A DNA stretch of 64,000 nucleotides, taken from positions 1,874-65,873 of the forward strand of contig JAFQZS010000001.1 in assembly GCA_017405765.1 (NCBI GenBank), given 5' to 3'. The notes under the pieces were generated by a model. It searched no databases. It had not been told where the DNA came from and saw nothing but the letters and a program-made list of their open reading frames with translations. Source of the stretch: Clostridia bacterium. GTDB taxonomy: Bacteria; Bacillota; Clostridia; Oscillospirales; RGIG577. Both the position numbers and the translations under genes were made by a program. Of the stretch, positions 4,517 to 27,563 are shown one piece after another. Each line of letters starts with the position of its first letter. The stretch's first letter is position 1.

Positions 4517-4531
4517 GGTCTTTTGCTCCTC

Positions 4532-11958: not shown

Positions 11959-11967
11959 ATTGACCTC

Positions 11968-12885: not shown

Positions 12886-12935
12886 AATGATCCCCTCCAT
12901 ATCGTAGTATAGCCTTTACCGAAAAAAATATAAAA

Positions 12936-12965
12936 CAGGGACGCAAACAAAGCCTTGCGTCCCTG
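12936..12965. terminator. Terminator downstream of yabR
   Basis: Stem 'cagggacgcaa'/'ttgcgtccctg', followed on the minus strand by TTTTATATTTTTTT. Confidence 0.65.
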
Positions 12966-12971
12966 CATATT

Positions 12972-13475
12972 TTAATATCTTCCCGACGTTCCGCGTCTTG
13001 ACGCAGCTCCGCGTTTTGATTCCATATACTTCTTGAGGTCGTGCATCTTTTCGTCGCTGTCCTGCTTAAAGCGGCTCATTTTTTCCTCAAAAGTAAGATT
13101 TTCCGGATCCTTTCGGAGTGGTTCAAAGTCTATTTGAATAGGAGTATTATTCGCGGTACTCTGTCTGTGCTTTGATTTGCTGCGAGACTGGCCCTTTTCA
13201 CCCGAAGCAGGTTTCTTTGCCGCCTGATTTGCGTCTTCCGACTGCGGGACCTGTTTCATAGACAAACTTATCTTTCCGTCTTCGCTTATGTTAATGATTT
13301 TTACCTTAACGATTTGGTTGTCGCTTACGTGGTCACGAATATCCTTGACAAAGGTATGCGTTATCTCCGATATATGTACCATACCGGCCTTACCGCCGCC
13401 CAAGGCAACAAACGCGCCGAACTTTGTAATGCCCGTGACACGGCCCTCCAAAACAGAGCCTACCTCCAGATTCAT
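12972..13475 (-). CDS. yabR: S1 RNA-binding domain protein (YabR-like)
   Basis: 'GSVLEGRVTGITKFGAFVAL..GKAGMVHISEI' S1 fold. Conserved yabP-yabQ-divIC-yabR gene order. Confidence 0.75.
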   Translation of the reverse strand: MNLEVGSVLEGRVTGITKFGAFVALGGGKAGMVHISEITHTFVKDIRDHVSDNQIVKVKIINISEDGKISLSMKQVPQSEDANQAAKKPASGEKGQSRSKSKHRQSTANNTPIQIDFEPLRKDPENLTFEEKMSRFKQDSDEKMHDLKKYMESKRGAASRRGTSGRY

Positions 13476-13524
13476 AAGTAAACAAATCCCCCTTAATTTG
13501 ATAAATGTAAGCCTTTATTTAAAG

Positions 13525-13821
13525 TTAATTGCTGTCAACATTTACAAATACTCGCTCGTTCGGATAAGCCAGTCCAAGTTTTTCACGTGCCACACGTTCA
13601 ACATATTCAGCGTCGATCGGCTGTTCAAGTGTGCGTTCAAGCTGCTCGTTAATTATCTTTTGTTCTTCCACCTGTGTACGCAGCGACTCTAAGTCCCGTG
13701 TCTTTTTTTCTATCATGGAGCCGAGCGTTGCCATCTGGTATATAATATATACTATAAAGACTGCCAATATAATTATAAGAATTATACGTCTGCGTCCCCT
13801 CGTTTTGGTAGCACCTTCCAT
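13525..13821 (-). CDS. divIC: Septum formation initiator (FtsB/DivIC family)
   Basis: 98 aa. N-terminal TM helix plus a coiled coil, and 'YVERVAREKLGLAYPNERVF'. Confidence 0.7.
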   Translation of the reverse strand: MEGATKTRGRRRIILIIILAVFIVYIIYQMATLGSMIEKKTRDLESLRTQVEEQKIINEQLERTLEQPIDAEYVERVAREKLGLAYPNERVFVNVDSN

Positions 13822-13872
13822 GATATTTTTCCTCCGAAGCGGTACATATATTATCTTCCGCAGGATATGCTT

Positions 13873-14355
13873 TCATTTTTTGCATATACCCAAATTCATT
13901 CTAACAGACTTTAACTTGAATTTAAAGACTTTTTTCAACTTTATCAAAAAATTCCTTGACTTTTTCTCTCTTTTTTTAATTCTTTTGATAAAAAGGCGAC
14001 ATATTATCATAAAAGGGCGCAGTAAAACCTTTATGATTTTTTCCAAAATCATAAAAACTGCGCCCATTACTGCCGAAACGGGACGGCTTAAAGCGGCAAA
14101 ATATAAAAATGCTCCCATTATCGCCCCTATCGCCAAGAAGGCTCTCAGCTCGCCCGAATTTGTATTATAAACAAACACAAAGATCGAAGCGCATGCAACA
14201 AGCCAGAATATAACGTCTTCTATCATTACCGCAAAATCAAGATGACGCAGCCGTTTTCTTATCACTCTGAAAAAATCATAAAAAAAAGCAATAGCCGCGC
14301 CCAGCAGTATCGACCACAAAAAAACAACGGTCTGATGAGCAACCGATATACCCAT
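13873..14355 (-). CDS. yabQ: Spore cortex biosynthesis protein YabQ
   Basis: Polytopic membrane protein directly after yabP. The start is taken at the ATG at 14355, 4 nt after the yabP stop. The ORF-track TTG start at 14424 would overlap yabP by 65 nt. Confidence 0.6.
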   Translation of the reverse strand: MGISVAHQTVVFLWSILLGAAIAFFYDFFRVIRKRLRHLDFAVMIEDVIFWLVACASIFVFVYNTNSGELRAFLAIGAIMGAFLYFAALSRPVSAVMGAVFMILEKIIKVLLRPFMIICRLFIKRIKKREKKSRNFLIKLKKVFKFKLKSVRMNLGICKK

Positions 14356-14712: not shown

Positions 14713-15948
14713 TTATATTTGAAGTTTTTTTGCGTATGCCAAAAGAGCCTTTCGCTCATTTGGAATTTTTCCTTCTATGACTGCCGAAAGCAATTCGTCA
14801 AGTATTGCTCCCAAATGCGGCGAAGGCTTAAATCCCAGCTTTATCAGATCTTTTCCGTCTATTGAAAGCGCGCCCAACGTAAAGCACTCGCCCGAATCGA
14901 TTATCGCATCCGTCTTCTTTTGCGCCTCTGTATACAGCGTTATGCTTTTTTCATCATTCGAAACCTTTGCCGCAGCCGTTCTTATACGGATGGCGTCCTT
15001 TACGGCGCGTTCTCCCGCGCGCGACAGCGCTTTTTTAAGCGTCACGTCCGACGTGTCGACAAGCGCCCAAAACGCCGCAATAATATTATCTGTACGCGTT
15101 CTGTCCTCACGGCTGCTTTTAAGTGAACAAAAAAGGCCGCGCGCGCGCGCCGCTGCGTCGTCGATCCCGCCGCAGACGTAAAGCGCGGCAAGGCGCGTAT
15201 AAAAATCCGGCGGCAAATATGATATGACCGCGCAGGCAAACGAAAGGCTTCGCGCCCTGCTTATATCGGGCGCAAAAACGGCTATGACTTCGGCATATTC
15301 GCTTATGACATGCGAAGCGCCGCCGCCCGTTACAAGCTTTTTAAACTCGTCGTATATGCGCTCGCGTGCGACGCGCTCAAGAAGTCCGCGGCAGCGAAAT
15401 ACGGCCGCGCGCGTCTCTTTTTCCAGTGAAAAGCCGAGTACGCCACAAAATCTTATCGCGCGCATTATCCGAAGCGCATCCTCGTGAAAGCGCGCCTCTG
15501 CGTCTCCCACGGCGCGAAGGAGCCCGCGCTCAAGGTCGCTGCATCCGCCGAAGCAGTCGATTACTTCGCCGCTTTCGTCAAAGGCGAGCGCGTTTACGGT
15601 AAAATCACGGCGCGAAAGGTCCTCCTTTAGATCGTCGGAGAAATATACGCGGTCGGGGCGGCGCAGATCGGAATAAACATCCTCGCGCCGAAACGTCGTT
15701 ATCTCTATCTTTTCGCCGCCTGCCATAACTGCCACCGTACCGAATTTTTGGCCCTCGTCAAAGCATGTTAAGTCGGCAAAAACTCGCTTTATATCGTCGG
15801 GACGCGCCGACGACGCAATATCCCAGTCGTGTACGGCGCGTCCGAGCAGCGTATCGCGCACGCATCCTCCGACAGGGTACGCCTTAAATCCGTTTTCGTT
15901 TAAACGGCGCAATACGAAGCGCACGCTTTGGGGAATATAGTGTCCCAT
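14713..15948 (-). CDS. cca: CCA tRNA nucleotidyltransferase (poly(A) polymerase family)
   Basis: 'AYPVGGCVRDTLLGRAVHDWDI' and 'RRDFTVNALA'. 411 aa. Confidence 0.8.
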   Translation of the reverse strand: MGHYIPQSVRFVLRRLNENGFKAYPVGGCVRDTLLGRAVHDWDIASSARPDDIKRVFADLTCFDEGQKFGTVAVMAGGEKIEITTFRREDVYSDLRRPDRVYFSDDLKEDLSRRDFTVNALAFDESGEVIDCFGGCSDLERGLLRAVGDAEARFHEDALRIMRAIRFCGVLGFSLEKETRAAVFRCRGLLERVARERIYDEFKKLVTGGGASHVISEYAEVIAVFAPDISRARSLSFACAVISYLPPDFYTRLAALYVCGGIDDAAARARGLFCSLKSSREDRTRTDNIIAAFWALVDTSDVTLKKALSRAGERAVKDAIRIRTAAAKVSNDEKSITLYTEAQKKTDAIIDSGECFTLGALSIDGKDLIKLGFKPSPHLGAILDELLSAVIEGKIPNERKALLAYAKKLQI

Positions 15949-15969
15949 AAAACGCCTCCGCTTATAAAG

Positions 15970-15997
15970 AAAACCGGCCGGAACAACGCCGGACGGT
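15970..15997 (-). terminator. Possible terminator after MDR paralog 1
   Basis: Short GC stem 'ccggc'/'gccgg', followed on the minus strand by TTTTCTTTAT. Confidence 0.35.
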
Positions 15998-16042
15998 ATA
16001 TCTTTAAACTAAATCTCTTGTTATAACGCGTAAAACTAAGCG

Positions 16043-17068
16043 TTAAAACTTGTTTACAACTACCTTCTCATACTTATGGTCGTCGCTTTTAAGCTCTTCA
16101 AATACGCGCTGAAGGTCGCCCAAGCCAACTGACGCCGAATAATATCTCTTTAAGTTTAGCTTCCTCGGATTTTCAGTAACAAGGCGCACCACTTCATCGA
16201 AATCGGCCGGAGTATGCGCGTTGAACGGGCGGATACGGATAAGCTTAGTACCCAGCATAAAAAAGTTTATCGGCGCGCTCTTATTATACATGGCAAGGGT
16301 AGCGATAGTCGAATTGCGCCTGAGCGTTAGAATGCCGGTGTTCAAAAATCTTGCGTTGCCGGAGCATTCAAAATGAGCGTTTAGGCCGCGCGAATCCGAA
16401 AGGAGTATATCGATTATTTCGGGATCTTCGGGGTCAAGCACCTTCGTTACCTCTCCGTAATCCATTACATTCAAAGCGCGAGTTTTGTTCTTCTCAAACA
16501 TGGCAATGTATTTCGCGCCGAAGAATTTGCACCACATGGCGACGAGAGCGCCCATGACGCCGCCTCCGCTTATGAGCACCTTCCAGCCGGGCCGAACGCC
16601 CATCTCGCGCACCATATGATACGCCGTAGCCGCAGGCGAAAGCATAAGCGCCTCAAAATCGGAAAACTTGTCCGGTATCTTTTTTACAAATTCGGGGCGA
16701 GCCTCGAAATACTCCGAAAAGGTGCCTTGTGCAAGCTTGCTCTTTCCGGGGGTGTTGCGGTTTTTATAGCAGAGGTTTTCCTGCCCGCTTTTGCAGAAAT
16801 CGCACTCAAGACAGGCGGCAAGCGGCAAAACGGTCACCCTGTCGCCTTCTTTTAAATCATCGCGCGGGCCGGCGTCCGCTACCGTTCCCACGATCTCGTG
16901 GCCCGGCACAGTTTCGCCCGTTATATCGCCCAATCCCCAAAGCGTAGTATCATATCCCGTTACACCGGCCAGCTTTGTTTTTATTATAACCTGTTTGCCG
17001 TTCGGCTCGGGGTCGTGTACCTGAGTCACTTCGATTTTTTCCTTGCCCATTATCATAGCTGCGCGCAT
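16043..17068 (-). CDS. MDR-superfamily dehydrogenase paralog 1 (divergent; catalytic-zinc ligands substituted)
   Basis: 341 aa. 'PGHEIVG', structural-Zn 'CLECDFCKSGQENLC' and Rossmann 'VLISGGGVMGAL' are present. However, the catalytic Cys site reads 'GVTGYD' (Thr) and the 'EP' Glu site reads 'LSP'. Confidence 0.8.
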   Translation of the reverse strand: MRAAMIMGKEKIEVTQVHDPEPNGKQVIIKTKLAGVTGYDTTLWGLGDITGETVPGHEIVGTVADAGPRDDLKEGDRVTVLPLAACLECDFCKSGQENLCYKNRNTPGKSKLAQGTFSEYFEARPEFVKKIPDKFSDFEALMLSPAATAYHMVREMGVRPGWKVLISGGGVMGALVAMWCKFFGAKYIAMFEKNKTRALNVMDYGEVTKVLDPEDPEIIDILLSDSRGLNAHFECSGNARFLNTGILTLRRNSTIATLAMYNKSAPINFFMLGTKLIRIRPFNAHTPADFDEVVRLVTENPRKLNLKRYYSASVGLGDLQRVFEELKSDDHKYEKVVVNKF

Positions 17069-17089
17069 GAGAAGACCTCCAAACTAAAA

Positions 17090-17120
17090 ATAAAGACGGT
17101 ACATAGAGTACCGTCTTTAT
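17090..17120 (-). terminator. Terminator after the MFS gene, abutting the RBS of paralog 1
   Basis: 13-bp stem 'ataaagacggtac'/'gtaccgtctttat'. On the minus strand it is followed by TTTTTAGTTTGGAGG and then ATG. Confidence 0.6.
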
Positions 17121-17155
17121 AATAACTTATATTACCGTGAAAATCAAGCCAAAGC

Positions 17156-18457
17156 TTAGATAGCTTCGCCAACTTCTCTCCAGTACTTAGCTCTTGCCTT
17201 CTTACCTGCAGCAAATACAATGATAACAAATACTATACCGATTACGTTGCAGACTGCGTTGAAGATGTAGGAGCCCATGTAGGAGCCAACAGCCTCAAGG
17301 AATACTGCGTTAAGAGAGTAAGTAAGACCGGTACCTGCGGACATACCCATGAATACGATAGGATAAAGCAGACCATAGTCTCTCATACCGAATATCTCAC
17401 GGATGATAACCGGGCCCTGCATGGTGGTCAGCGATACGGTAGTACCGTAGAGAACTGCGCAGAGAGCGATTACGCCCAAGGAAGGATTGCTGTGCTGGAT
17501 CATCATGATGATCATTGCAACAGTACCGATTATCGAGAAGATGATGAACGTGTTTCTCGGACCGATCTTCTTGGAGTCGTTCATTGCGCCGCCGATGATC
17601 TTAAATGCTGCAGCTGCAAGCATTGCTGCGGTAGCGAGGAACGATGCGGATACGAGGTCGAAGCCGTAGGTTACGCCTGCGTTTACCCAGTGCTGGTTGA
17701 AGCCGGTGCAGAAGCCGCTGAACATGATCGTTACGAGAGCGAGCCAGAGAGCAGCGGACTTGTAAGCGTATTTCTTCGGGATACCGGGGAACTCTTTTAT
17801 CTCGACCTGATCCTTAATGTCCTTCATTTCCTCGGACTCTTCGATACCGTAGGGCTTTAAGCCCATATCAGCCGGCTTACTTCTTAAGAAGATAAGCGTT
17901 ACGATAGGGAAGATAAGTGCGATGATACCTGCTACTCTGTAGCCGTATCTCCAGTCGTGGTTAACGATGATGGTTGCAAAAATCGGGTTGTAAAGCGCGC
18001 CGCCGATACCGGTCATCATGTAAGAGATACCCATAACGAGCGCTCTGTGCTTTATAAACCAGTTGTTGATAAGAACCGGAACAACGTTTAACGCTGCGAA
18101 TGCGCCCATAGCGCCGCAAAGAGCAGCGGTTAAATAGAAGTGCCAGATCTGAGTGGAAGATGCGTAAAGGAACATGCAGGCAGCAATTACAAAGCCGCCG
18201 ATCGTGGTAACCTTTCTCGGACCCCACTTAGCGAATGCCTTACCACCGAGCCAATAGAATGCAACGGTGATCCAAGATGCGATCGTCATTATAAGCGAAA
18301 CCTGCGAGGTCTGGAAGCCGAGGTCTATAGCAATCGGGCCCATAAACAGACCGTACGTATTACTGATAAGACCAACGCCGCAAAGACCGGCTAAGCAGCA
18401 AATAATGAAGATTACCCAACAATACCTGTTCTTTTTTACCGGTTGTTGTTCTGCCAT
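17156..18457 (-). CDS. MFS transporter (OFA/monocarboxylate-transporter-like)
   Basis: 433 aa, about 12 hydrophobic helices arranged 6+6 with a central charged loop 'GIEESEEMKDIKDQVEIKE'. Confidence 0.8.
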   Translation of the reverse strand: MAEQQPVKKNRYCWVIFIICCLAGLCGVGLISNTYGLFMGPIAIDLGFQTSQVSLIMTIASWITVAFYWLGGKAFAKWGPRKVTTIGGFVIAACMFLYASSTQIWHFYLTAALCGAMGAFAALNVVPVLINNWFIKHRALVMGISYMMTGIGGALYNPIFATIIVNHDWRYGYRVAGIIALIFPIVTLIFLRSKPADMGLKPYGIEESEEMKDIKDQVEIKEFPGIPKKYAYKSAALWLALVTIMFSGFCTGFNQHWVNAGVTYGFDLVSASFLATAAMLAAAAFKIIGGAMNDSKKIGPRNTFIIFSIIGTVAMIIMMIQHSNPSLGVIALCAVLYGTTVSLTTMQGPVIIREIFGMRDYGLLYPIVFMGMSAGTGLTYSLNAVFLEAVGSYMGSYIFNAVCNVIGIVFVIIVFAAGKKARAKYWREVGEAI

Positions 18458-18590
18458 AGTAAAAAAACCTCCTATAAAATAAATTTAATAAATAAACCTG
18501 TTCCCTTTTCCCCGAACCTAAATGCAATCTGTGTTTTTTAGAGCGAGAGCAAATTAGGCAAAAATAGGGGAACAATTGTTTATACAAAGT

Positions 18591-18619
18591 ATGATAACAC
18601 CAAGTTCACAATTTGTCAA
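18591..18619 (-). promoter_or_regulatory. Putative sigma-A promoter of the MFS gene
   Basis: On the minus strand: TTGACA, 17 nt, TGtTATCAT (extended -10). Confidence 0.5.
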
Positions 18620-18634
18620 ACTATTTGTCAAACT
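18611..18634. repeat. Perfect tandem 12-mer (atttgtcaaact x2) overlapping the stop of paralog 2 and the -35 of the MFS promoter
   Basis: 18611-18622 and 18623-18634 are identical. Each copy contains TTGACA on the minus strand. Confidence 0.8.
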
Positions 18635-19664
18635 TTATCATTATTTTTATGTCTGTGCCGTTCGGGTTCTCAAGATCTTCAAACGCCTGCTGAACCTCTT
18701 CGAGCTTTATATCTCTCGAATACTGCTTCAGAACGTTGAATTCCTTGTTAGCGATTATCTGCATAACTTCCTTGAACTCGGGTGCGGTATAGCCGAGGAT
18801 GCCTATAACCGTAAGTCTGTAAAGCATCGTGTGGAAAATTGAGAACGGCTTCGGCTGAAGCTGTACGCCGATGAGGGCAACCTTGCCGCGCATCTTCATA
18901 GCTGCAAGACCGGTGTTCGTACCGTTTATGTTGCCGGAGCACTCGATGAAGTAATCGAAGCCCTTGCCGCCCGTTGCAACGCGGAGCTTTTCAACTATCT
19001 TTTCATCCTTGCCGTCAAACAGCTCGTCTATGTAGCCGTCGGCCTTTACCTTATTACCGCGGAACTCGTTTACCTCGGTCATTGCAACATATTTTGCACC
19101 GAAATACTTTGCCCACTGTGCGGCGCAGGAACCTATGATGCCGCCGCCGGAAACGAGGACGGTCGCGCCTCTCGAAATACCGAGCTGCTTGCATGCCGAA
19201 TACGGCGTGGAAGCGGGCTCTATCATAGCAGCCTCTTCGTCGCTCATTGTGTCTGGAAGCTTAACTACCAGATGCGGAGCCGCAGCCATAAGGTCTGCAT
19301 ACGAGCCTCTTGCAGCTTCCTGCGGATAGTTGCCGGGAGCGGGAATTTTAGCGGTACAGTTGTCGAAATCGCCTCTGAGACATGCTTCGCAGCGGCCGCA
19401 GTAGGTCGTCAGCGGGATAGTGGTTATTCTGTCGCCTACCTTCAGGTCGGTCCTGCAGCCGGGATCGGCAACAACGCCTGCGTGCTCGTGTCCGGGAACG
19501 GTGCTGTTATACATGGCACCCGAGCCAACCTGCCAGAAATGCACGTCGGATCCGCAGATACCTACAGCCGTAGGCTTCATAAGTACCTTGTAACCGTCCG
19601 CCTTGGGAGCGTCGATCTGAACTATTTCTATTTTCTTGTCCGCGGTAATCATTGCAGCTTTCAT
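18621..19664 (-). CDS. Zinc-type MDR dehydrogenase paralog 2
   Basis: 347 aa. 'GICGSDVH', 'PGHEHAG', 'CGRCEACLRGDFDNC', 'MIEP', 'VLVSGGGIIGS' and 'VAMTEVN'. Confidence 0.85.
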   Translation of the reverse strand: MKAAMITADKKIEIVQIDAPKADGYKVLMKPTAVGICGSDVHFWQVGSGAMYNSTVPGHEHAGVVADPGCRTDLKVGDRITTIPLTTYCGRCEACLRGDFDNCTAKIPAPGNYPQEAARGSYADLMAAAPHLVVKLPDTMSDEEAAMIEPASTPYSACKQLGISRGATVLVSGGGIIGSCAAQWAKYFGAKYVAMTEVNEFRGNKVKADGYIDELFDGKDEKIVEKLRVATGGKGFDYFIECSGNINGTNTGLAAMKMRGKVALIGVQLQPKPFSIFHTMLYRLTVIGILGYTAPEFKEVMQIIANKEFNVLKQYSRDIKLEEVQQAFEDLENPNGTDIKIMIKFDK

Positions 19665-19711
19665 AATACATACACCTCTCTTGATTATTTTTCGATATGC
19701 TTTCTCGTATT

Positions 19712-19743
19712 ATTGAAAATCAGCAAAAATGCATATTTTCAAT
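19712..19743. promoter_or_regulatory. 9-bp perfect inverted repeat in the 5' UTR/operator position of paralog 2
   Basis: 'attgaaaat', 14 nt, 'attttcaat', located between the putative -10 and the RBS. Confidence 0.4.
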
Positions 19744-19749
19744 GATACT

Positions 19750-19778
19750 ATTTTATCATTATTGCATAAAAAACCCAA
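19750..19778 (-). promoter_or_regulatory. Putative sigma-A promoter of paralog 2
   Basis: On the minus strand: TTGGGT, 17 nt, TAAAAT. Confidence 0.4.
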
Positions 19779-19799
19779 TCGGAAAATTTGCCTATTTTT

Positions 19800-19819
19800 T
19801 TGTTTACACTTTGTTTACA
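19800..19819. repeat. Direct repeat TTGTTTACA x2 with 11-bp phasing, upstream of the paralog 2 promoter
   Basis: 19800-19808 and 19811-19819 are identical, spaced one helical turn apart. Confidence 0.6.
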
Positions 19820-20051
19820 TTTTATTAGGATTTTATTATTGAATGATAAAAAATCACCTTTTTTGACTATGTTTATAATACATTTCCTCATTTTTTACAT
19901 TATACAGGCAAGTTTTTTCTTCAAATTAGCTTGCTTAATATAAAAAACACTTCTTAATACTTAAAAAATCAGTGATTTTATAATTCTTTTTTCTTATCTG
20001 ATTTATTTTTACAGCACAGATCCTGCATCATAAGCTTTCTTAATAACAAAC

Positions 20052-20080
20052 GCGGTGCAGACTAAAACTGCCTGCACCGC
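20052..20080 (-). terminator. Terminator after paralog 3
   Basis: Stem 'gcggtgcag'/'ctgcaccgc', followed on the minus strand by GTTTGTTATT. Confidence 0.5.
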
Positions 20081-20105
20081 AAGTATTTATACTGTTATGC
20101 TATTA

Positions 20106-21149
20106 TCAGCCGCGCGGGAACTGTACCATGATCTTTACTTTGTCGCTGTCGGGCTTCTTTAATTCTTCATATGCAGCCTGGATGTCCTCTAACTTCCAGT
20201 CGCAGCTGTAGTGACGCATTACGTCTATCTTCTTGTCTGCGATGAGCTGTATAACTTCGTCGAACTCATCGAACGAATAGCAAAGGTGGAACTTGAGCGT
20301 AGGACGCTTGTAAAGCGCGGGAATAAGATTGAGCTGCGCCGGCTTGTCGGACGAACCGATCATAGTGATTGTCGCGCCGATCTTGCAGGCAAGAACAGCC
20401 GTATTTATCGGGACGGACTGACCGGTGCACTCGAAAGCAAAGTCAAAGCCCTTGCCGCCCGTCGCCTTTAAAAGCTTCTGTACAAGCTCGGGATCAGCGC
20501 CGTCGAACAGCTCGTCTATGTTGCCGTCCTTTAAGTTCTTTTCTCCTCTGAACTTATTTACCTCTACCATTGCAACGTAGCCTGCGCCGAAATATTTTGC
20601 CCACTGTGCAGCAAACGAACCGATTATGCCGCCGCCGAATACCAAAACCTTCTCGCCTGTCAGTATTCTTTGACGCTTAACAGCCGAATAGAGCGTTGCG
20701 CACGGCTCAACCATTGCTGCCTCTTCGTTAGACATGCTGTCGGGGATCTTTCTTACAAGCGAGGGAGCCGTTGCGAAATACTCGGCCATGGAGCCAGCGG
20801 GACCGTTCGGGAAGTTGCCTACGCCCGTTTCTCTGTTTTCGCAGCGGTCAAACTTATGTTCAAGGCAGGGGCCGCACTTTCCGCACGGAGCGGGAAGCGG
20901 TATGGACGTAACTCTGTCGCCCGGCTTTAAGTCGGTGCGTGCTCCGGGGTCAACGACTACGAGCGAATGCTCGTGTCCCACACGGGTGAATTTATGAGCG
21001 GGAAGGTCTCCAAGATCCCAGAAATGAAGGTCGGATCCACAGATACCTACGGTCTCAACTCTCGTTATTACGTGATAGCCGTCAGACTCGGGCATCGGGA
21101 AATCCTGTACTTCGATCTTTTTTGCGCCTGTGATTATTGCACCTTTCAT
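20106..21149 (-). CDS. Zinc-type MDR dehydrogenase paralog 3
   Basis: 347 aa. 'GICGSDLH', 'VGHEHS', 'CGKCGPCLEHKFDRC', 'MVEP', 'VFGGGIIGS' and 'VAMVEVN'. Confidence 0.85.
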   Translation of the reverse strand: MKGAIITGAKKIEVQDFPMPESDGYHVITRVETVGICGSDLHFWDLGDLPAHKFTRVGHEHSLVVVDPGARTDLKPGDRVTSIPLPAPCGKCGPCLEHKFDRCENRETGVGNFPNGPAGSMAEYFATAPSLVRKIPDSMSNEEAAMVEPCATLYSAVKRQRILTGEKVLVFGGGIIGSFAAQWAKYFGAGYVAMVEVNKFRGEKNLKDGNIDELFDGADPELVQKLLKATGGKGFDFAFECTGQSVPINTAVLACKIGATITMIGSSDKPAQLNLIPALYKRPTLKFHLCYSFDEFDEVIQLIADKKIDVMRHYSCDWKLEDIQAAYEELKKPDSDKVKIMVQFPRG

Positions 21150-21270
21150 GTTATGTATTCCTCCTATGATTATTTGGTTTGCTTAATAAGTATTGTTATC
21201 ATATCATATCTTTACAAAAAAGAAAATAGTTTTTTGAATTTTTTTGTTTAAATTTATCCATAGCAACCTT

Positions 21271-21747
21271 CTAATTCATAACTGCAACAAAAAAATTCAA
21301 AACTGCGGCGAATATTATCCACAAAAGATAAGGAATAAAAAGATAAAAAGAGACTTTATCAGCATCGCACATCTTGAAAAATGATGCGCCCGCCGTACCG
21401 ATAAGCAAAAGGAGCCAAAAAAACGCCGCCCAGAAATTGTTTAAAAGAAAAAATATCGGCGTCCACAAAAGGTTTATAACAAGCTGCACAGTAAAATAAT
21501 TAAGCGCATCCGCAACTTTTTCCGAGTCATTCTTTTCGGGCAGGTAAAAACGCAAACGATAAAGAACTACGCCCAAAACACCGTATAGTATCGGCCACAC
21601 GACCCCAAACACACCGGCGTGAGGCGCAAATGCGGGAAGCCTAAGGCTTTCGTATACTTCGGCCGCTCCCATCGCCGCCAGTCCCGATATGAATCCCAGC
21701 GCCTGAACAGCAGCAAGCGAAAGGATAAGTCTGCCGACTTGTTTCAT
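21271..21747 (-). CDS. tspO: TspO/MBR family tryptophan-rich sensory protein
   Basis: 158 aa, five TM helices. 'FGVVWPILYGVLGV' and 'LLWTPIFFLLNNFW' match TspO signatures. Confidence 0.75.
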   Translation of the reverse strand: MKQVGRLILSLAAVQALGFISGLAAMGAAEVYESLRLPAFAPHAGVFGVVWPILYGVLGVVLYRLRFYLPEKNDSEKVADALNYFTVQLVINLLWTPIFFLLNNFWAAFFWLLLLIGTAGASFFKMCDADKVSFYLFIPYLLWIIFAAVLNFFVAVMN

Positions 21748-21826
21748 ATGGATATCCTCCGAATTTCTTTTTTATAAGTATATCGCGGATATCACAATAT
21801 TATTCCGATCATAAAAGAACGCATAA

Positions 21827-21852
21827 AAGAACGCGGCTCGCTTGAGCCGCGT
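21827..21852 (-). terminator. Terminator after paralog 4
   Basis: Perfect 11-bp stem 'gaacgcggctc'/'gagccgcgttc', 4-nt loop, followed on the minus strand by TTTTAT. Confidence 0.65.
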
Positions 21853-21871
21853 TCTATAAGCATTATAATTA

Positions 21872-22915
21872 TCAGTCGCGCGGGAACTGTATCATTATCT
21901 TTACCTTATTGCAATCGGGCGACTGAAGTTCTCTGTAGCAGTCCTCTACATCCTCAAGTTTGCAGTCTGCGGAGTAGTATCTTGAAACGTCAAACTTCTT
22001 CGAAGCGATAAGATCCATTACCTCGCCGAACTCAGCGTCGGTGTAGCAAAGATATGCCTGAAGGCGTGCGCGCTTAAAGAGAGCAACAACGTTGTTGAAC
22101 TGTATCGGCTGTGCTGCTACGCCGATTATAGCGATGCGCGCATACATCTTGCTTGCGAGCATTGCCGTGTTGAGCGGTCCTGCCTGACCGGTACATTCGA
22201 GCACGAAGTCGAAGCCCTTGCCGCCGGAAGCCTTTATGAGCTTTTGTAAAAGCTCGGGGTCCTTGCCGTCGAACAGCTCGTCTATGTTGCCTACCTCGAG
22301 GTTTCGGTTGCCTCTGAACTTGTTTACCTCTACCATTGCAACATAATCTGCGCCGAAGTATTTAGCCCACTGTGCGGCAAACGATCCGATAATGCCGCCG
22401 CCGAATACGAGTACCTTGTGGCCGCGCTTTATGCCCATATCCTTAACTGCGGAATAGGGGGTCGCACAGGGCTCTACCATCGACGCTTCTTCATTAGTCA
22501 TGCCGTCCGGTATCTTTCTTACGAGATTGGGAGCAGTGATAAAATATTCAGCATACGTTCCCGCAGGGCCGTCGGCAAAGTTTCCTACGCCCTTTATTCT
22601 GTTCGTGCATTCGTCATAGCGATGCTCCATGCACGCCGTGCATTTTCCGCAGGGAGCGCTTACAGGAAGCGAAGTGATCCTGTCGCCCACTTTAAGGTCG
22701 GTACGCGATCCGGGGTCAACTACTATGCCGGCATGCTCATGACCGGGGCGTATGCCCTGATAGCCCGGCAGATTGCCCATCTCCCACATATGTATGTCGG
22801 AGCCGCAGATGCCGCAGGTCTGCACCTTCATAATTACGTTTCTACCGTCCGGCTCGGGATTCGGGAAATCCTTGATCTCAAGCTTCTTATAATCGGTAAT
22901 TATTGCGCCTTTCAT
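21872..22915 (-). CDS. Zinc-type MDR dehydrogenase paralog 4
   Basis: 347 aa from the ATG at 22915 (RBS AGGAGGAA). 'GICGSDIH', 'GHEHAG', 'CGKCTACMEHRYDEC', 'MVEP' and 'VFGGGIIGS'. Confidence 0.88.
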   Translation of the reverse strand: MKGAIITDYKKLEIKDFPNPEPDGRNVIMKVQTCGICGSDIHMWEMGNLPGYQGIRPGHEHAGIVVDPGSRTDLKVGDRITSLPVSAPCGKCTACMEHRYDECTNRIKGVGNFADGPAGTYAEYFITAPNLVRKIPDGMTNEEASMVEPCATPYSAVKDMGIKRGHKVLVFGGGIIGSFAAQWAKYFGADYVAMVEVNKFRGNRNLEVGNIDELFDGKDPELLQKLIKASGGKGFDFVLECTGQAGPLNTAMLASKMYARIAIIGVAAQPIQFNNVVALFKRARLQAYLCYTDAEFGEVMDLIASKKFDVSRYYSADCKLEDVEDCYRELQSPDCNKVKIMIQFPRD

Positions 22916-22970
22916 TTTACACATTCCTCCTGTTTATATATTTTTTAATGGCCTGTTTCAAGTTATATAT

Positions 22971-22998
22971 ATTATATCACTTTGTTTAAAAAATCCAA
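22971..22998 (-). promoter_or_regulatory. Putative sigma-A promoter of paralog 4
   Basis: On the minus strand: TTGGAT, 16 nt, TGaTATAAT, with an A/T-rich tract upstream. Confidence 0.5.
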
Positions 22999-23062
22999 TA
23001 CCTTTTTTGTGTTTTTTGTATGTTTTTTCAAAATAAAGTCATACCGTGAAAAACACATCGGT

Positions 23063-24106
23063 CTAATCTCTCGGGAACTGTATCATTATCTTTATCTTAT
23101 TGCAGTCAGGAGACTGAAGCTCCCTATAGCAATCCTCTACCTCTTCTAACTTGCAGTCCGCCGAGTAGTATTTTAAAACGTCGAACTTCTTTTCGGCGAT
23201 CAGCCTCATTACCTCGTCGAACTCGGCGTCGGTATAGGTAAAATATGCCTGAAGGCGGGCGCGTTTGAAAAGTGCTGCGACGCTGTTGAAGGTAAGCGGA
23301 GCGGACGCCGAGCCTATCAGCGCTATGCGGGCGCGCATCTTGCTAGCCATGATCGCCATATTCAAGGGGTCGGACTGGCCCGTGCATTCAACTACATAGT
23401 CAAATCCGCGTCCTCCCGTCGCCTTTAAAAGCTTACCTAAAAGCTCGGGGTCTTTCCCGTTGAACAGCTCGTCTATATTGCCTAATTCAAGGTTCTTTTT
23501 TCCTCTGAATTCATTTACCTCAACCATCGCAACATAGCTTGCGCCGAAGTATTTCGACCACTGCGCTGCAAACGAACCGATTATGCCGCCGCCGAATACC
23601 AAGACCTTATCTTGGCGCTTTATGCCCATATCCTTGACTGCGGAGTACGGAGTCGCGCACGGTTCTATCATCGCCGCTTCCTCGTTCGTCATGGTGTCTG
23701 GTATCTTTCTTACGAGAAACGGCGGTGTGATAAAATATTCCGCGTACGTTCCGGCCGGGCCGTCGGAATAGCATCCCACGCCCTTCGTTCTGTTCACGCA
23801 GTCGTCATAGCGATGCTCAAGACATGCGGTACACACGCCGCACTCGGTATTTCTCGGGATCGAGGTTATCCTGTCCCCCACTTTAAGGTCGGTGCGCGAT
23901 CCGGGATCTATAACTATGCCCGCATGCTCATGTCCCGGGCGCACGTTATGAAATCCGGGCTGATCGCCCAGCTCCCATATATGTATGTCGGAACCGCAAA
24001 TTCCGCAGGTCTGCACTTTCATGATAACGTTTTTGCCGTCCGGCTCGGGCTTAGGAAAGTCTCTTATCTCAAGCTTCTTATGATCGGTGATTATTGCGCC
24101 CTTCAT
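23063..24106 (-). CDS. Zinc-type MDR dehydrogenase paralog 5
   Basis: 347 aa with the same motif set ('GICGSDIH', 'GHEHAG', 'CGVCTACLEHRYDDC', 'MIEP', 'VFGGGIIGS'). Confidence 0.88.
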   Translation of the reverse strand: MKGAIITDHKKLEIRDFPKPEPDGKNVIMKVQTCGICGSDIHIWELGDQPGFHNVRPGHEHAGIVIDPGSRTDLKVGDRITSIPRNTECGVCTACLEHRYDDCVNRTKGVGCYSDGPAGTYAEYFITPPFLVRKIPDTMTNEEAAMIEPCATPYSAVKDMGIKRQDKVLVFGGGIIGSFAAQWSKYFGASYVAMVEVNEFRGKKNLELGNIDELFNGKDPELLGKLLKATGGRGFDYVVECTGQSDPLNMAIMASKMRARIALIGSASAPLTFNSVAALFKRARLQAYFTYTDAEFDEVMRLIAEKKFDVLKYYSADCKLEEVEDCYRELQSPDCNKIKIMIQFPRD

Positions 24107-24158
24107 TTCACAGTTCTCCTCATATGGTTTTTTAAAACTATTGTCCTGATTTATGTTT

Positions 24159-24186
24159 ATTATATCATATTATCACAAAAATCCAA
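24159..24186 (-). promoter_or_regulatory. Putative sigma-A promoter of paralog 5
   Basis: On the minus strand: TTGGAT, 16 nt, TGaTATAAT. Confidence 0.5.
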
Positions 24187-24262
24187 GCCATTTTTTATGA
24201 CTTTTTGTGTATTGTTATTATTGGACGATTTCTGATTAGCTCATTCGTTTTTCCGGCAAAAA

Positions 24263-24291
24263 TTAAGCGCGGTGTTTTAAACCGCGCTTAA
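24263..24291 (-). terminator. Terminator after paralog 6
   Basis: Stem 'ttaagcgcggt'/'accgcgcttaa', followed on the minus strand by TTTTTG. Confidence 0.65.
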
Positions 24292-24309
24292 AATGTATTT
24301 CGCTGTAAT

Positions 24310-25353
24310 TTAATCTCTCGGGAACTGGATCATTATCTTTATCTTATCGCAGTTGGGAGACTGAAGCTCATGATAGCAATCCTGTACTTCCTCAAGCTTG
24401 CAGTCTGCGGAGTAATATCTTAAAACGTCGAACTTCTTCGCCGCAATAAGGTTCATTACCTCGTTAAATTCAGCGTCCGTGTAGGTAAGGTATGCCTGAA
24501 GACGTGCGCGCTTAAAGAGAGCAACAACGTTGTTGAAGAGTATCGGCGTTGCCGATACGCCGATTATTGCAACGCGTGCGCGCATCTTGCTTGCGAGCAT
24601 TGCCGTGTTGAGCGGTCCTGCCTGGCCTGTGCATTCAAGCACGTAATCGAAGCCCTTGCCGTCCGTAACCTTTAAAAGCTTATTGAGAAGCTCGGGGTCC
24701 TTTCCGTCGAACAACTCGTCGATATTGCCCATCTCGAGGTTTTTCTTGCCTCTGAATTCGTTTACCTCTACCATTGCAACGTAATCAGCGCCGAAGAATT
24801 TTGCCCACTGTGCGGAAACGGAACCGATTATGCCGCCGCCGAATACCAAAACCTTATCTCCGCGTTTTATACCCATATCCTTGACTGCGGAATACGGAGT
24901 TGCGCAGGGTTCTATCATTGCAGCCTCTTCGTTCGTCATGGTGTCGGGTATCTTTCTTACGAGGTTGGGCGCCGTGCTGAAATACTCAGCATAAGTTCCG
25001 GCGGGACCGTCCGGGAAGTTGCCTACGCCTTTTATTATATGAGTACAATCGTCGAAACGGCGCTCCATGCACGCCGTACACTCGCCGCACGCGGTTCTGT
25101 TCGGAAGCGAAGTGATCCTGTCGCCTACTTTAAGGTCGGTACGCGATCCGGGGTCAACTACTATGCCGGCATGCTCGTGTCCGGGACGTATGCCTTTATT
25201 GCGCGCATCTCCGCCTCCCTCCCACATATGTATGTCGGAGCCGCAAATACCGCAGGTCTGTACCTTCATGATAACGTTTTTGCCGTCCGGCTCGGGTTTT
25301 GGAAAATCCCTGATCTCAAGCTTCTTGTAATCGGTAATTATTGCACCTTTCAT
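24310..25353 (-). CDS. Zinc-type MDR dehydrogenase paralog 6
   Basis: 347 aa with the same motif set ('GICGSDIH', 'GHEHAG', 'CGECTACMERRFDDC', 'MIEP', 'VFGGGIIGS'). Confidence 0.88.
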   Translation of the reverse strand: MKGAIITDYKKLEIRDFPKPEPDGKNVIMKVQTCGICGSDIHMWEGGGDARNKGIRPGHEHAGIVVDPGSRTDLKVGDRITSLPNRTACGECTACMERRFDDCTHIIKGVGNFPDGPAGTYAEYFSTAPNLVRKIPDTMTNEEAAMIEPCATPYSAVKDMGIKRGDKVLVFGGGIIGSVSAQWAKFFGADYVAMVEVNEFRGKKNLEMGNIDELFDGKDPELLNKLLKVTDGKGFDYVLECTGQAGPLNTAMLASKMRARVAIIGVSATPILFNNVVALFKRARLQAYLTYTDAEFNEVMNLIAAKKFDVLRYYSADCKLEEVQDCYHELQSPNCDKIKIMIQFPRD

Positions 25354-25411
25354 TTCACGTTCCTCCTTAATATATAATGTTTATAAGATTTGCTCGTATA
25401 AGTATATAATT

Positions 25412-25439
25412 GTTATATCATATTATTACAAAAATCCAA
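25412..25439 (-). promoter_or_regulatory. Putative sigma-A promoter of paralog 6
   Basis: On the minus strand: TTGGAT, 16 nt, TGaTATAAC. Confidence 0.45.
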
Positions 25440-25507
25440 GCCCCTTTTTTATATTTTTTGTGTATTTTATTTATTAGTCTAAAAGAGCATTTTTGCGCAT
25501 ATAAAAA

Positions 25508-25535
25508 GGGGCGCGGCAAGAATACCGCGCTCCCC
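25508..25535 (-). terminator. Terminator after paralog 7
   Basis: GC stem 'ggggcgcgg'/'ccgcgctcccc', followed on the minus strand by CTTTTTAT. Confidence 0.6.
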
Positions 25536-25551
25536 CAAAAATCGGCGTTTT

Positions 25552-26595
25552 TTAATCCCTCGGGAACTGTATCATCATCTTGACCTTTTGCGACGTCGGC
25601 GAGTGCAGCTCCTCAAATACCTCGTTTAAACTTTCAAGGCTGCAGCCTCCTGAATAATGGCGCGATACGTCAAATTTCTTTTCGGCTATAAGCTTCATCA
25701 CCTCGTCGAATTCTTCGTTCGAATATCCCAGATATGCCTGAAGACGGGCGCGTTTAAACAGCGCTACTACATTATTAAAAGCTATCGGCTTTACCGACAC
25801 TCCTATCACTGCGATGCGCGCATACATTTTACTTGCCATCATCGCCGTGTTCAGCGGTTCGGCATGTCCCGTGCATTCAAGCACATAGTCAAATCCCTTG
25901 CCGCCGGAAGCCTTTAAAAGCTTTCCTAACAGCTCGGGGTCCTTGCCGTCGAACAACTCGTCAATATTGCCGTCCGCCAGGTTTTTCTTGCCGCGGAACT
26001 CATTGACCTCAACCATAGCGACGTAGTCCGCGCCGAAATATTTTGACCACTGAGCCGAGAAAGATCCTATAATACCGCCGCCGAATACCAAAACCTTATC
26101 TCCACGCTTTATGCCCATATCCTTTACTACGGAATACGGCGTTGCGCACGGCTCGACCATCGCGGCTTCTTCGTTTGTCATATTGTCCGGTATCTTTCTT
26201 ACGAGCGACGGATCGGCTGTGAAATACTCCGCATATGAGCCGGGCAGTCCGGCCGCCGAAAGGCCCATGCCCGATACTCTGTGCTCGCACTCCAAAAACC
26301 TGTGCTCAAGACATGCGGTGCACACGCCGCAGCCAACGCTTACAGGGATGGTCGTTACTCTGTCGCCCGGCCTTAGGTCGCTTCGCGCGCCGGGATCAAC
26401 CACTATTCCGGCGTGCTCGTGCCCCATAACGGTGCCCTTATACGTCGGCTGGTCGCCCATCTCCCAAACATGGATATCGCCGCCGCATATGCCCACCGTC
26501 TGCGTTTTTACAATAACGTTTCTCCCATCGGATTCGGGTTTGTTTACATCCCTGACTTCAATATTTTTTGCGTCCGTTACAACTGCCGCTTTCAT
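25552..26595 (-). CDS. Zinc-type MDR dehydrogenase paralog 7
   Basis: 347 aa. 'GICGGDIH', 'GHEHAG', 'CGVCTACLEHRFLEC', 'MVEP' and 'VFGGGIIGS'. Confidence 0.88.
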   Translation of the reverse strand: MKAAVVTDAKNIEVRDVNKPESDGRNVIVKTQTVGICGGDIHVWEMGDQPTYKGTVMGHEHAGIVVDPGARSDLRPGDRVTTIPVSVGCGVCTACLEHRFLECEHRVSGMGLSAAGLPGSYAEYFTADPSLVRKIPDNMTNEEAAMVEPCATPYSVVKDMGIKRGDKVLVFGGGIIGSFSAQWSKYFGADYVAMVEVNEFRGKKNLADGNIDELFDGKDPELLGKLLKASGGKGFDYVLECTGHAEPLNTAMMASKMYARIAVIGVSVKPIAFNNVVALFKRARLQAYLGYSNEEFDEVMKLIAEKKFDVSRHYSGGCSLESLNEVFEELHSPTSQKVKMMIQFPRD

Positions 26596-26686: not shown

Positions 26687-26712
26687 CAAAGGGCGCTTTT
26701 CGCGCCCCTTGT
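26687..26712 (-). terminator. Terminator after spo0A
   Basis: GC stem 'aagggcgc'/'gcgcccctt', followed on the minus strand by GTTTTTTGC. Confidence 0.6.
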
Positions 26713-26716
26713 TTCA

Positions 26717-27514
26717 TCATATTATTTTTATTCCGGCAGCTTTTCTGTCCATTTTTATCTTCAGTCTCAGCTTGTCCGCTATCATCGCTATAAACTCCGA
26801 GTTGGTCGGCTTGCCCTTTTCGTTTTGTATCGTATAGCCGAATATGCTGTCCAACGCGTCGATGTCGCCTCTGTCCCACGCCACCTCTATCGCATGGCGT
26901 ATTGCTCTTTCAACACGCGAGGGAGTCGTCTGAAACCGTTTGGCCACCGATGGATACAAAAGCTTTGTGATAGAGTTTATAACTTCCATATCCTCTACAG
27001 CCATCATTATGGCCTCTCTCATATATTGATACCCCTTTATATGCGCAGGGACGCCCAGCTCATGCATTATCTTTGTTATCTGTGCCTCGAGCGAAAGCTC
27101 CCCTTCATCGGAGAATATAAGCATTGCATCGCGCCTTTTCGTGCCTTTTGTGCCGAAACTTACGATCCTGTCCTCAAGCGCTCCGAAATCAAGAGGCTTG
27201 CGCATATAATAATCCGCGCCAAGCTCAATGGCTTCCTCCATCACTCTGTCGCTTCTTATTGCCGTTATGACAATGAATACAGGCCTTTTAGTCAATATTT
27301 CGGCATTTTTAAGGATCTGCAGTCCATCAAGCCCCGAGAGCACGATATCCATAAGCACCACATGCGGCGAAAGCTTTTCTACAGCGTCTATAACCTCCAC
27401 GCCATTGGAAGCCGTGCCTATTATCTCAACTTTCTCCTTCGATAAATTTTCCTTGAGCGCACTGATAAAATCAGGACTGTCGTCAGCGACGAATACTTTA
27501 ATTTTCTGCATCAT
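26717..27514 (-). CDS. spo0A: Sporulation master regulator Spo0A
   Basis: Receiver domain '[11 protein letters not shown]...[12 protein letters not shown]'. C-terminal Spo0A-specific '[16 protein letters not shown]...[15 protein letters not shown]...[15 protein letters not shown]'. The start is taken at the ATG at 27514, behind AAAGGA. Confidence 0.95.
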
Positions 27515-27563
27515 ATTTCTCTGTCCTTTCTTAAATTGTATCTTTATTTTCGGCCGCAACAGT

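Follow-up and report, generated by a model that had tools for sequence, protein, structure and literature searches.

Zinc-dependent medium-chain dehydrogenases/reductases (MDRs) of the polyol/threonine/butanediol-dehydrogenase branch are normally encoded by single genes placed in the operons of their substrates. One enzyme of this branch from gut Clostridia, DesC of Clostridium scindens, was deposited as a putative iditol dehydrogenase (PDB 4OH1) and is an NADH-dependent steroid 20α-hydroxysteroid dehydrogenase (20α-HSDH); its gene is present in a single copy in the inducible desABCD operon, in which DesD is a Na+/melibiose-type symporter. Here, a stretch of 64,000 nucleotides of a Clostridia bacterium genome of the RGIG577 lineage (assembly GCA_017405765.1, contig JAFQZS010000001.1, positions 1,874 to 65,873) was analysed, which is referred to as the window. 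The window contains seven tandem genes of zinc-type MDR proteins, together with a transporter gene of the major facilitator superfamily (MFS) and a TspO gene. This array is the largest version known so far of a locus that is conserved and lineage-restricted; the families of its components are known, and its architecture is undescribed in the literature searched.

Organisation, distribution and history of the array

The seven open reading frames (ORFs), numbered A1 to A7 in the direction from cca to spo0A, lie on the minus strand, span positions 16043–26595 and align with each other over their full length, as a sequence-only reading of this DNA had described. That reading had listed an MFS transporter and TspO as the only further genes of the block and had recognised no regulator. 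The Pfam matches to MFS_1 and TspO_MBR agree with this, since the other ORFs of the block are antisense overlaps of A1–A7, the MFS gene and the TspO gene, and no regulator gene was found in the block. The features of the block are as follows.

16043–17068, minus strand: A1, MDR-fold paralogue of 341 aa (Pfam, alignments, orthologues)
17069–17155, minus strand: MFS-A1 spacer, with a promoter-like box overlapping a hairpin directly before the A1 ribosome-binding site
17156–18457, minus strand: MFS transporter of 433 aa, SLC16/OFA-like (Pfam MFS_1, E 1e-35)
18458–18620, minus strand: putative MFS promoter and leader of ~110 nt (consensus match, predicted stem)
18621–19664, minus strand: A2, Zn-MDR dehydrogenase of 347 aa (Pfam, alignment, tree)
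19665–20105, minus strand: A3-A2 spacer of 441 bp, with the A3 terminator at 20051–20081 and the A2 promoter box at ~19750–19778
20106–21149, minus strand: A3, Zn-MDR dehydrogenase, GHEHSL variant (Pfam, alignment, tree)
21271–21747, minus strand: TspO/MBR family membrane protein of 158 aa (Pfam TspO_MBR, E 1e-31; synteny)
21872–22915, minus strand: A4, Zn-MDR dehydrogenase of the recent triplet; terminator hairpin at ~21829–21854, promoter box at ~22970–22998
23063–24106, minus strand: A5, Zn-MDR dehydrogenase of the recent triplet; promoter box at ~24158–24186
24310–25353, minus strand: A6, Zn-MDR dehydrogenase of the recent triplet; terminator at 24263–24291, promoter box at ~25411–25439
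25552–26595, minus strand: A7, Zn-MDR dehydrogenase with GICGGD (Pfam, alignment, tree); terminator at 25511–25530
26691–26708, minus strand: spo0A terminator hairpin, which divides spo0A from the array (consensus match)

An alternative ATG of A4 is present at 22924, and the homologues favour the start at 22915. The block is flanked by cca (14713–15948; PolyA_pol in the orthologous loci) and yabQ/yabP on one side and by spo0A/spoIVB on the other, which confirms its earlier placement between core genes. The GC content, GC3 and codon usage of the array are like those of the adjoining core genes, in line with the earlier impression that its composition is not foreign. A foreign origin is ruled out by the composition, the codon usage and the synteny kept on both flanks.

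The synteny survey placed the same locus between spo0A and cca in independent assemblies. In the RGIG5637 lineage from sheep duodenum (L001/L013), the gene order is spoIVB-spo0A, three dehydrogenase genes, TspO, two dehydrogenase genes, two MFS genes, an A1-type gene and cca, which gives six dehydrogenases. In L012/L031 (RGIG577; dairy-cattle duodenum and a metagenome contig), the order is spo0A, A7- and A4-type genes, TspO, A3- and A2-type genes, MFS, an A1-type gene and cca, where the five-copy array is complete on one 9.5-kb contig. The overlapping contigs L003 and L028 from JGI metagenomes, which were taken as one lineage, show spo0A, a dehydrogenase gene, TspO, three dehydrogenase genes, three MFS genes, an A1-type gene and cca-yabP-yabQ, with five dehydrogenases. 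The number of dehydrogenase genes per locus is 5, 6 or 7, the last being that of the window, and the number of transporter genes is 1–3. The position between spo0A and cca is kept also where Spo0A has no more than 64% identity, as in one of these lineages. Among the loci recovered, A3-type genes occur in the window, L001 and L012/L031 lineages only, and A6 has no one-to-one orthologue in the other genomes. The scan of metagenome contigs added at least one complete five-copy array and at least one fragment.

Close relatives were found in 2 of the 185,579 GTDB species representatives, both of which are metagenome-assembled genomes (MAGs) from ruminant duodenum (Dairy_cattle_Duodenum and Sheep_Duodenum) that Xie et al. 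2021 (PMC8199421) obtained in a survey of the ruminant gut. When 1.84 billion cluster representatives were searched exhaustively with HMMER, one full-length representative had more than 50% identity, the next being at 42%. The array is rare, which speaks against the possibility, raised with the sequence-only reading, that it is common. That reading had not recognised a described system, and in the literature searched no account was found of such an array, of TspO, an MDR array and an MFS carrier together, or of a TspO gene embedded in a dehydrogenase array; an apparent match, PMC7229006, was false and arose from the string 'tspo0A'.

The history of the copies was examined using an all-versus-all alignment and a neighbour-joining tree (200 bootstraps) of the array members and their nearest outside relatives. 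All array members form one clade relative to the ~42%-identical outside relatives (bootstrap 92%), and the orthologous groups are recovered across genomes with bootstraps of 100% for the A1, A2 and A3 types, 82% for the A7 type and 98% for A4/A5/A6; one further dehydrogenase type, absent from the window, is present in the JGI lineage. A2 is the oldest of the catalytically intact types. Because the orthologous groups are shared across genomes, most of the duplications preceded the species splits. The five paralogue types are older than the split of at least three species-level lineages, and only the A4/A5/A6 group is recent, with one copy in L012/L031, two in L001 and three in the window. The earlier proposal of a lineage-specific expansion therefore stands in that the family is lineage-restricted, monophyletic and composed of intact genes under selection, but the expansion is mostly old. 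Of the ~42%-identical relatives, those whose contexts were examined are single-copy genes in unrelated neighbourhoods, P0114 by an epimerase gene in a glycosyltransferase locus and P0018 alone among thiamine genes, and neither context gives a clue to function.

When the array is compared with itself, it aligns at an offset of one unit, also in the intergenic DNA. Serial tandem duplication of units of ~1.2 kb, each consisting of a promoter, a gene and a terminator, would have generated the five old paralogue types, and a recent triplication of one of them (A4/A5/A6) would have brought the number to seven in the window genome. The locus itself appears to be chromosomal and vertically inherited; in a small clade of uncultured Clostridia from the ruminant gut, it has a fixed place between spo0A and cca.

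The ratio of nonsynonymous to synonymous substitution rates (dN/dS) between the window and L001 is 0.035–0.10 for all seven copies, including 0.053 for A2 and 0.035 for A3, compared with 0.14 for pfk, 0.24 for spoIVB and 0.40 for cca among the neighbouring genes. These values point to seven functional genes under strong purifying selection.

The synonymous divergence between the window and L001 is 0.40–0.55 for the contiguous A3, A2 and MFS genes (window 17156–21149; L001 12900–18553) and 0.9–2.5 for TspO, A7, A1 and the flanking core genes. These values suggest recombination between the two lineages after their split, by which ~4 kb may have been exchanged; unusually strong codon constraint is an alternative. 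A second case of tandem dehydrogenase paralogues in this organism group is seen in L023 (17503–20119; JGI 3300029305), where three tandem short-chain dehydrogenase genes (277, 277 and 273 aa) are found on a contig with a 59%-identical MFS homologue.

Catalytic motifs, putative pocket loops and the copy without a catalytic zinc site

All seven copies match Pfam ADH_N (E 1e-16 to 1e-22; 59–77 bits, cut-off 23.5) and ADH_zinc_N (E 5e-11 to 2e-24; 43–86 bits, cut-off 31.8), both domains scoring above the gathering threshold in 7/7. The amino acid identity is 80–84% among A4, A5 and A6 (84% for A4/A6) and ~70% between A7 and this triplet, while A3, A2 and A1 show 63–66%, 50–55% and 35–38% to the other copies, respectively. 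The DNA identity between copies is 83% at most.

The catalytic zinc ligands C37, H59/E60 and E148 (A6 numbering) are present in A2–A7, that is, in six of the seven copies. The full GICGSDxH motif is present in A2–A6 only; A7 and its orthologues (L1_a, L3_a and P0009) contain GICGGD, where the relay serine is replaced by glycine across the whole orthologous group, and A3 carries GHEHSL. The sequence-only reading had credited six copies with the full MDR signature, which is right for A2–A6 as far as GICGSDxH is concerned and has to be qualified for A7 and, at the second motif, for A3. The Ser/Thr of GICGSD, which normally forms a hydrogen bond to the oxygen of the substrate, is the start of the proton relay, and the glycine in the A7 group would imply a modified catalytic arrangement in that paralogue. 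The four structural-zinc cysteines (C-x2-C-x2-C-x7-C) do not vary among the seven copies or in 74 aligned relatives. An acidic residue follows strand beta-2 in every copy (Glu196 in A6 numbering), within VAM(V/T)EVN or, in A1, AMFEKN. The glutamate at the end of beta-2, which had been taken earlier as a sign of NAD rather than NADP, is thus found in all seven, and a preference for NAD would fit this residue according to general knowledge of MDR enzymes.

The relation to characterised enzymes was determined from profile scores, sequence matches and predicted structures. The best NCBIfam model, IolM, scores 101–152 bits against a cut-off of 450, and the best scores of the Tdh models are 133 and 133.5 bits against 458 (TIGR00692) and 380 (NF003808). 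Both assignments were rejected, as the scores are below the cut-offs, no kbl partner of Tdh is present in the locus, and no other iol gene is present between cca and spo0A. A large protein collection gives generic names only, namely 'zinc-binding dehydrogenase' and 'alcohol dehydrogenase catalytic domain-containing protein'. The best PDB sequence match is E. coli YdjJ (5vm2, E 5e-32). The AlphaFold2 (AF2) model of A6, which has a mean confidence (pLDDT) of 94.6, is about equally close to (R,R)-butanediol dehydrogenase (BDH), xylitol dehydrogenase (DH), threonine dehydrogenase (TDH), sorbitol dehydrogenase (SDH), arabinitol DH, YdjJ and idonate DH, with template-modelling (TM) scores of 0.83–0.88 at 20–27% identity. 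The models of A1 and A6 both reach TM scores of 0.8–0.9 to Zn-MDR structures, the nearest being the group of BDH, xylitol DH, TDH, SDH and idonate DH. Sorbitol, xylitol and butanediol dehydrogenases are the top PDB matches by sequence and fold, with 24–27% identity, which is no better than TDH or YdjJ. The products are probably cytoplasmic, NAD(H)-dependent zinc MDR oxidoreductases of the polyol/threonine/butanediol-dehydrogenase branch.

DesC matches the array at 63.9 bits (E 1.3e-16) with 20% identity and ranks 16th by fold and as low as ~50th among the PDB matches by sequence, no closer than sorbitol or threonine dehydrogenases. In view of this score, identity and rank, the array enzymes are not DesC orthologues; in addition, desAB is absent and the transporter is of another type. 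As DesC acts on a steroid, polyol substrates are not to be assumed for every member of the branch.

The positions at which the copies diverge were located in 23 catalytically intact members. As shown by the variability along the alignment, the peaks are at residues 46–56, 85–88, 103–118, 245–252, 267–278 and 289–294 (A6 numbering), of which the first three segments correspond approximately to what we take to be pocket residues 57, 93, 110 and 116 of horse liver alcohol dehydrogenase. We infer that the variable loops line the substrate pocket. Among A4, A5 and A6, 35 of the 87 differences are located in the 70 loop positions (Fisher p ~4e-7, in a test that is partly circular). The dN/dS of the loops is 0.22–0.30 between paralogues and 0.02–0.18 between orthologues, whereas that outside the loops is 0.04–0.11 for paralogues and orthologues alike. 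This pattern would fit a divergence of the loops after each duplication, followed by conservation. The earlier suggestion of differing substrate pockets is borne out to the extent that the paralogues differ most in loops that match MDR pocket positions by motif anchors, a comparison made on sequences only.

A1 differs from the other copies in its catalytic site. The Cys, Ser and His of C-G-S-D-x-H and the Glu of 'EP' are all substituted (GVTGYDTT, MLSP), whereas GHE, the four structural cysteines, GGGVMG and the Glu after beta-2 are retained. In the A1 orthologues the four catalytic-site positions are occupied by T/N/S, Y/F, T/A/S and S/V/A, so that GHE alone remains of the ligands. A1 is without more of the residues than the sequence-only reading had stated. 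Its dN/dS (window versus L001) is 0.083, and its AF2 model (pLDDT 95.5) has Zn-MDRs as Foldseek neighbours. A1 is an old, separate and conserved subfamily and not merely a degenerate copy, and its chemistry, judged from these substitutions, could not be the canonical zinc mechanism.

Proteins of the A1 type are rare, with five clusters found. The A1-type gene is located directly downstream of MFS wherever both are seen, namely in the window, L001, L012, L027/L028, L030 and L022. In the partial contig L030, only TspO, MFS and the A1-type gene are present before cca. This adjacency in every locus, together with the replaced catalytic site, leads to the view of A1 as a conserved partner of the carrier, which would work with it in a role other than zinc-dependent catalysis. 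In L022 (132–5713; ENA ERZ21878447 ctg32126l), three tandem MFS paralogues, 51–55% identical to the MFS of the window, are followed by an A1-type MDR gene whose product is 52% identical to A1, and the other array dehydrogenases are absent from the recovered 14.5 kb; amplification in that lineage concerned the transporter and not the enzyme.

Carrier, TspO, predicted transcription signals and neighbouring genes

The best NCBIfam models of the MFS protein are the L-lactate carrier SfMCT (113 bits, NF049980 cut-off 320) and the conjugated bile salt MFS transporter (104 bits, cut-off 400). Its best PDB match is SfMCT (6g9x, E 2.7e-11), at ~25% identity over the full length. At the position of SfMCT Arg280, which we take to be a carboxylate-binding residue, it has a lysine that is invariant in all clade members examined. 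This weakly suggests that the substrate may be anionic and monocarboxylate-like. The SLC16/MCT-like MFS protein, with its conserved basic residue in transmembrane helix 8 (TM8), would most likely move the substrates or products of the enzymes, and because of the carrier type and this residue they may be hydroxylated or oxo carboxylates, such as hydroxy acids, sugar acids, cyclitol carboxylates and possibly bile acids.

In L025 (1328–4881; JGI 3300031555), a 49%-identical MFS homologue is divergent from genes for a PaaK-like AMP-ligase and an ACT-domain protein, and ~6 kb away (11135–13939) a short-chain dehydrogenase/reductase gene adjoins that of a 646-aa enoate-reductase-type protein (Oxidored_FMN/Pyr_redox_2). 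This context is a possible hint at aryl or other organic carboxylates for this MFS family. In L001, the two MFS genes (15671–16972 and 17252–18553) have identical coding DNA and different upstream leaders, and the L013 contig breaks at the same point; the pair reflects either a very recent duplication or a problem of repeat resolution in that assembly.

The TspO protein matches Pfam PF03073 with 110.1 bits (cut-off 24) over profile positions 2–143 of 145, and it matches TSPO structures in the PDB, among them 2mgy (E 5e-10). Its gene lies inside the array in every full locus.

Behind nearly every gene of the block there is a G+C-rich hairpin and a T run, and ahead of it there are an extended -10 promoter-like sequence and a ribosome-binding site of the AGGAGG type. 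A box, ATTGGATTTTTGT-N-ATGATATAAT, is present upstream of A2, A4, A5 and A6 and upstream of dehydrogenase copies in L001, L012 and the distant L003, and the window and L001 share 88% identity over the ~200 nt that precede A2. In the MFS-A1 spacer, TTGATT-17-TATTAT overlaps the hairpin AAAGACGGTAC-N5-GTACCGTCTTT, which is followed by a T run and which three compensated base-pair changes (AAAGGTAGTAC/GTACTACCTTT) maintain in L027/L028. With these signals, the array looks like a row of monocistronic units and not like one operon.

The near-consensus promoter-like sequence of the MFS gene is TTGACA-17-TGTTATCAT. It precedes a ~110-nt leader, which has a T-rich tail as well as a long-range stem, TTGTTCCCC...GGGAACAGG, and may be cis-regulatory. 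RNAalifold gave no compensatory pairs for this leader in four close sequences. Searches of the intergenic regions with Rfam gave no match at E <= 1 except one spurious miRNA, and none for the MFS leader; neither Spo0A boxes nor cre sites were found in these regions. The layout of the leader is also seen in L001 (15500–15670 and 17080–17251) and L012 (~5075–5234), and long MFS leader hairpins of different sequence are present in L028 and L022.

On the cca side, the core genes of the window include those of a glycyl-radical enzyme, yunB, hpf, fumarase, trxB, S1 and yabQ/yabP; on the spo0A side they are spoIVB, pfk, dnaE, whiA, murB, hprK, ispH and rpoA. The spo0A ORF as called mechanically (window 26717–27559) begins with TTG and encodes 280 aa, and the ATG at 27514 is the likelier start because the orthologues have 264–265 aa. 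At window positions 3608–6625 (minus strand), genes are found for the glycyl-radical enzyme (PFL-like + Gly_radical, 697 aa) and a radical-SAM activase (302 aa).

Explanations for the array and comparison with known systems

With moderate confidence, we read the locus as a battery of zinc MDR oxidoreductases that use NAD(H) and have diversified pocket loops. An SLC16-like carrier of oxo or hydroxylated carboxylates would be coupled to them, and a paralogue without a zinc site that is tied to the carrier, as well as TspO, would accompany them. The pocket loops would have diverged after each duplication and then stayed constant; because of this, the substrates of the copies are most likely secondary alcohols or ketones that are related but not the same. 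Alternatively, the copies may target different positions or stereocentres of one scaffold.

Several points weigh against this reading. No copy and no nearest outgroup protein exceeds a curated NCBIfam cut-off, and the nearest relatives outside the clade, at ~42% identity, are without assigned function. The mapping of the pocket was anchored on the catalytic and structural-zinc cysteines with horse liver enzyme numbering and used no coordinates, and the enrichment test is circular in part because the loops were defined from data that include A4/A5/A6. The loop dN/dS is raised yet never exceeds 1, so that positive selection is not indicated. The alignment of the MFS protein with SfMCT is weak (46 bits), with Lys in place of Arg, and the promoters and terminators are consensus matches only. 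Since the locus contains neither a partner catabolic enzyme nor a regulator, no pathway can be drawn, and the substrates cannot be read from the sequence.

Catabolism of neutral polyols or cyclitols, where sorbitol-, xylitol-, arabinitol-, butanediol- and inosose-type dehydrogenases would act on plant sugar alcohols, would account for the GICGSDxHxW motif, for BDH, xylitol DH, SDH, arabinitol DH and ketose reductase as the top neighbours in fold and sequence, and for the best NCBIfam model, IolM being a scyllo-inosose 3-dehydrogenase. However, the scores reach about one-third of the curated cut-offs and the identity to solved enzymes is 20–27%. The locus has no kinase, isomerase, phosphotransferase system or sugar-type porter, and its sole carrier is SLC16/OFA-like with the conserved basic TM8 residue. 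The position that we presume to be equivalent to Arg298 of human SDH, on an unverified alignment, holds small residues. We regard this account as unlikely.

If the copies performed the same task, for example as an NADH-consuming electron sink or in carbonyl detoxification, and had been amplified for the level of expression, the strong-looking extended -10 promoter and good ribosome-binding site of every unit would be explained, as would the variation among close relatives, in which the youngest group has 1, 2 or 3 copies and the transporter 1–3, and the identical coding sequences of the MFS pair of L001. Copies kept purely for dosage are usually homogenised or lost, whereas the five old types stay distinct at 50–70% identity and are conserved as orthologues, their loop differences being under purifying selection; in addition, the catalytic residues are altered in A1 and A7. 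A role in dosage or redundancy is thus considered quite unlikely, even more so than polyol catabolism.

A further account, which appears improbable, is a battery for host bile acids or steroids in small-intestinal Clostridia, where HSDHs of the MDR type, rather than of the short-chain dehydrogenase/reductase type, would act on different positions or stereocentres, the MCT-like MFS protein would import the carboxylates, TspO would be a sterol- or tetrapyrrole-binding partner in the membrane, and A1 would assist the carrier in a non-catalytic or unconventional way. It is attractive in view of the duodenal MAG names, TspO, the resemblance of the MFS protein to the bile salt model and the DesC precedent, but each of these clues is weak, and the support for the sterol-like ligands considered in the sequence-only reading is circumstantial. 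Both species genomes that contain close relatives are named after the duodenum, but duodenal digesta also carries organisms washed from the forestomach. The conjugated bile salt model is the second best for the MFS protein and matches it over the full length, although its 104 bits are far below the cut-off of 400. TspO lies within the array at every full locus. DesC offers a precedent of an MDR annotated as iditol dehydrogenase that is a steroid 20α-HSDH, and its structural distance to A6 is similar to that of sorbitol DH; however, it is just 20% identical (63.9 bits), ranks 16th to ~50th in the PDB matches, and has as its transporter DesD, which is of the Na+/melibiose type and not of this MFS type. 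No desAB, bai or bile-salt-hydrolase gene was seen in the locus or in the scanned parts of the window, and a review lists the glucocorticoid 20α-HSDH as the only microbial MDR-type HSDH.

An assembly artefact with fewer real copies is highly improbable, even if the window is from a short-read MAG and the L013 contig stops (15793) where L001 has the duplicated MFS, because the copies, at no more than 83% DNA identity, are too diverged to have been duplicated by an assembler, independent assemblies of other samples contain for each of them an orthologue of its own or a distinct sequence, and the reading frames are all intact and under purifying selection.

The array of oxidoreductases with a carboxylate carrier, as preferred here, is of interest because a locus of the core chromosome keeps five to seven diverged and seemingly separately transcribed copies for longer than the divergence of several species, and because a paralogue without a catalytic site, tied to a monocarboxylate-type carrier, and TspO occur in the same locus. 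If the specificities are distinct, the array would be a compact natural panel of related oxidoreductases for gut metabolites and a clean case of subfunctionalisation by pocket-loop change. If bile acids or steroids are the substrates, it would bring a second enzyme superfamily into the bile-acid chemistry of the gut and give a metabolic context for bacterial TspO. A practical limit is that the organism is uncultured.

Each component of the locus can be compared with a known system. With the TspO/MBR proteins of Rhodobacter, Bacillus cereus and mammals (TSPO), the TspO of the array shares the full-length Pfam match and the five-helix size, although its score is below the cut-off of the alphaproteobacterial TspO equivalog (66.6 versus 180). 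With SfMCT/SLC16 and the oxalate:formate antiporter (OFA) family, the MFS protein shares a full-length alignment with SfMCT and a basic residue at the position of Arg280, whereas Asn276 of SfMCT is not conserved and is replaced by Ala. The CbsT-type conjugated bile salt transporters are related to it through its second-best NCBIfam model, below the cut-off.

The array resembles DesC in consisting of zinc MDRs of the same branch from gut Clostridia that are encoded beside a transporter gene, and differs in that the desAB transketolase genes are absent and that DesD is not an SLC16-like MFS protein. With sorbitol DH, xylitol DH, L-arabinitol 4-DH, L-threonine 3-DH, (R,R)-butanediol DH, L-idonate 5-DH and IolM, the array proteins share the two-domain fold, with TM scores of 0.82–0.88, and A2–A7 share the catalytic Cys-His-Glu and Glu, the four-Cys lobe, GxGxxG and the acidic residue after beta-2, with GICGSDxHxW common to A2–A6 and GICGGD in A7. 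Unlike the usual single genes of this branch, whose operon lets the substrate be guessed, the array has no partner catabolic enzymes and consists of five to seven seemingly monocistronic tandem copies, one of which is without the catalytic site.

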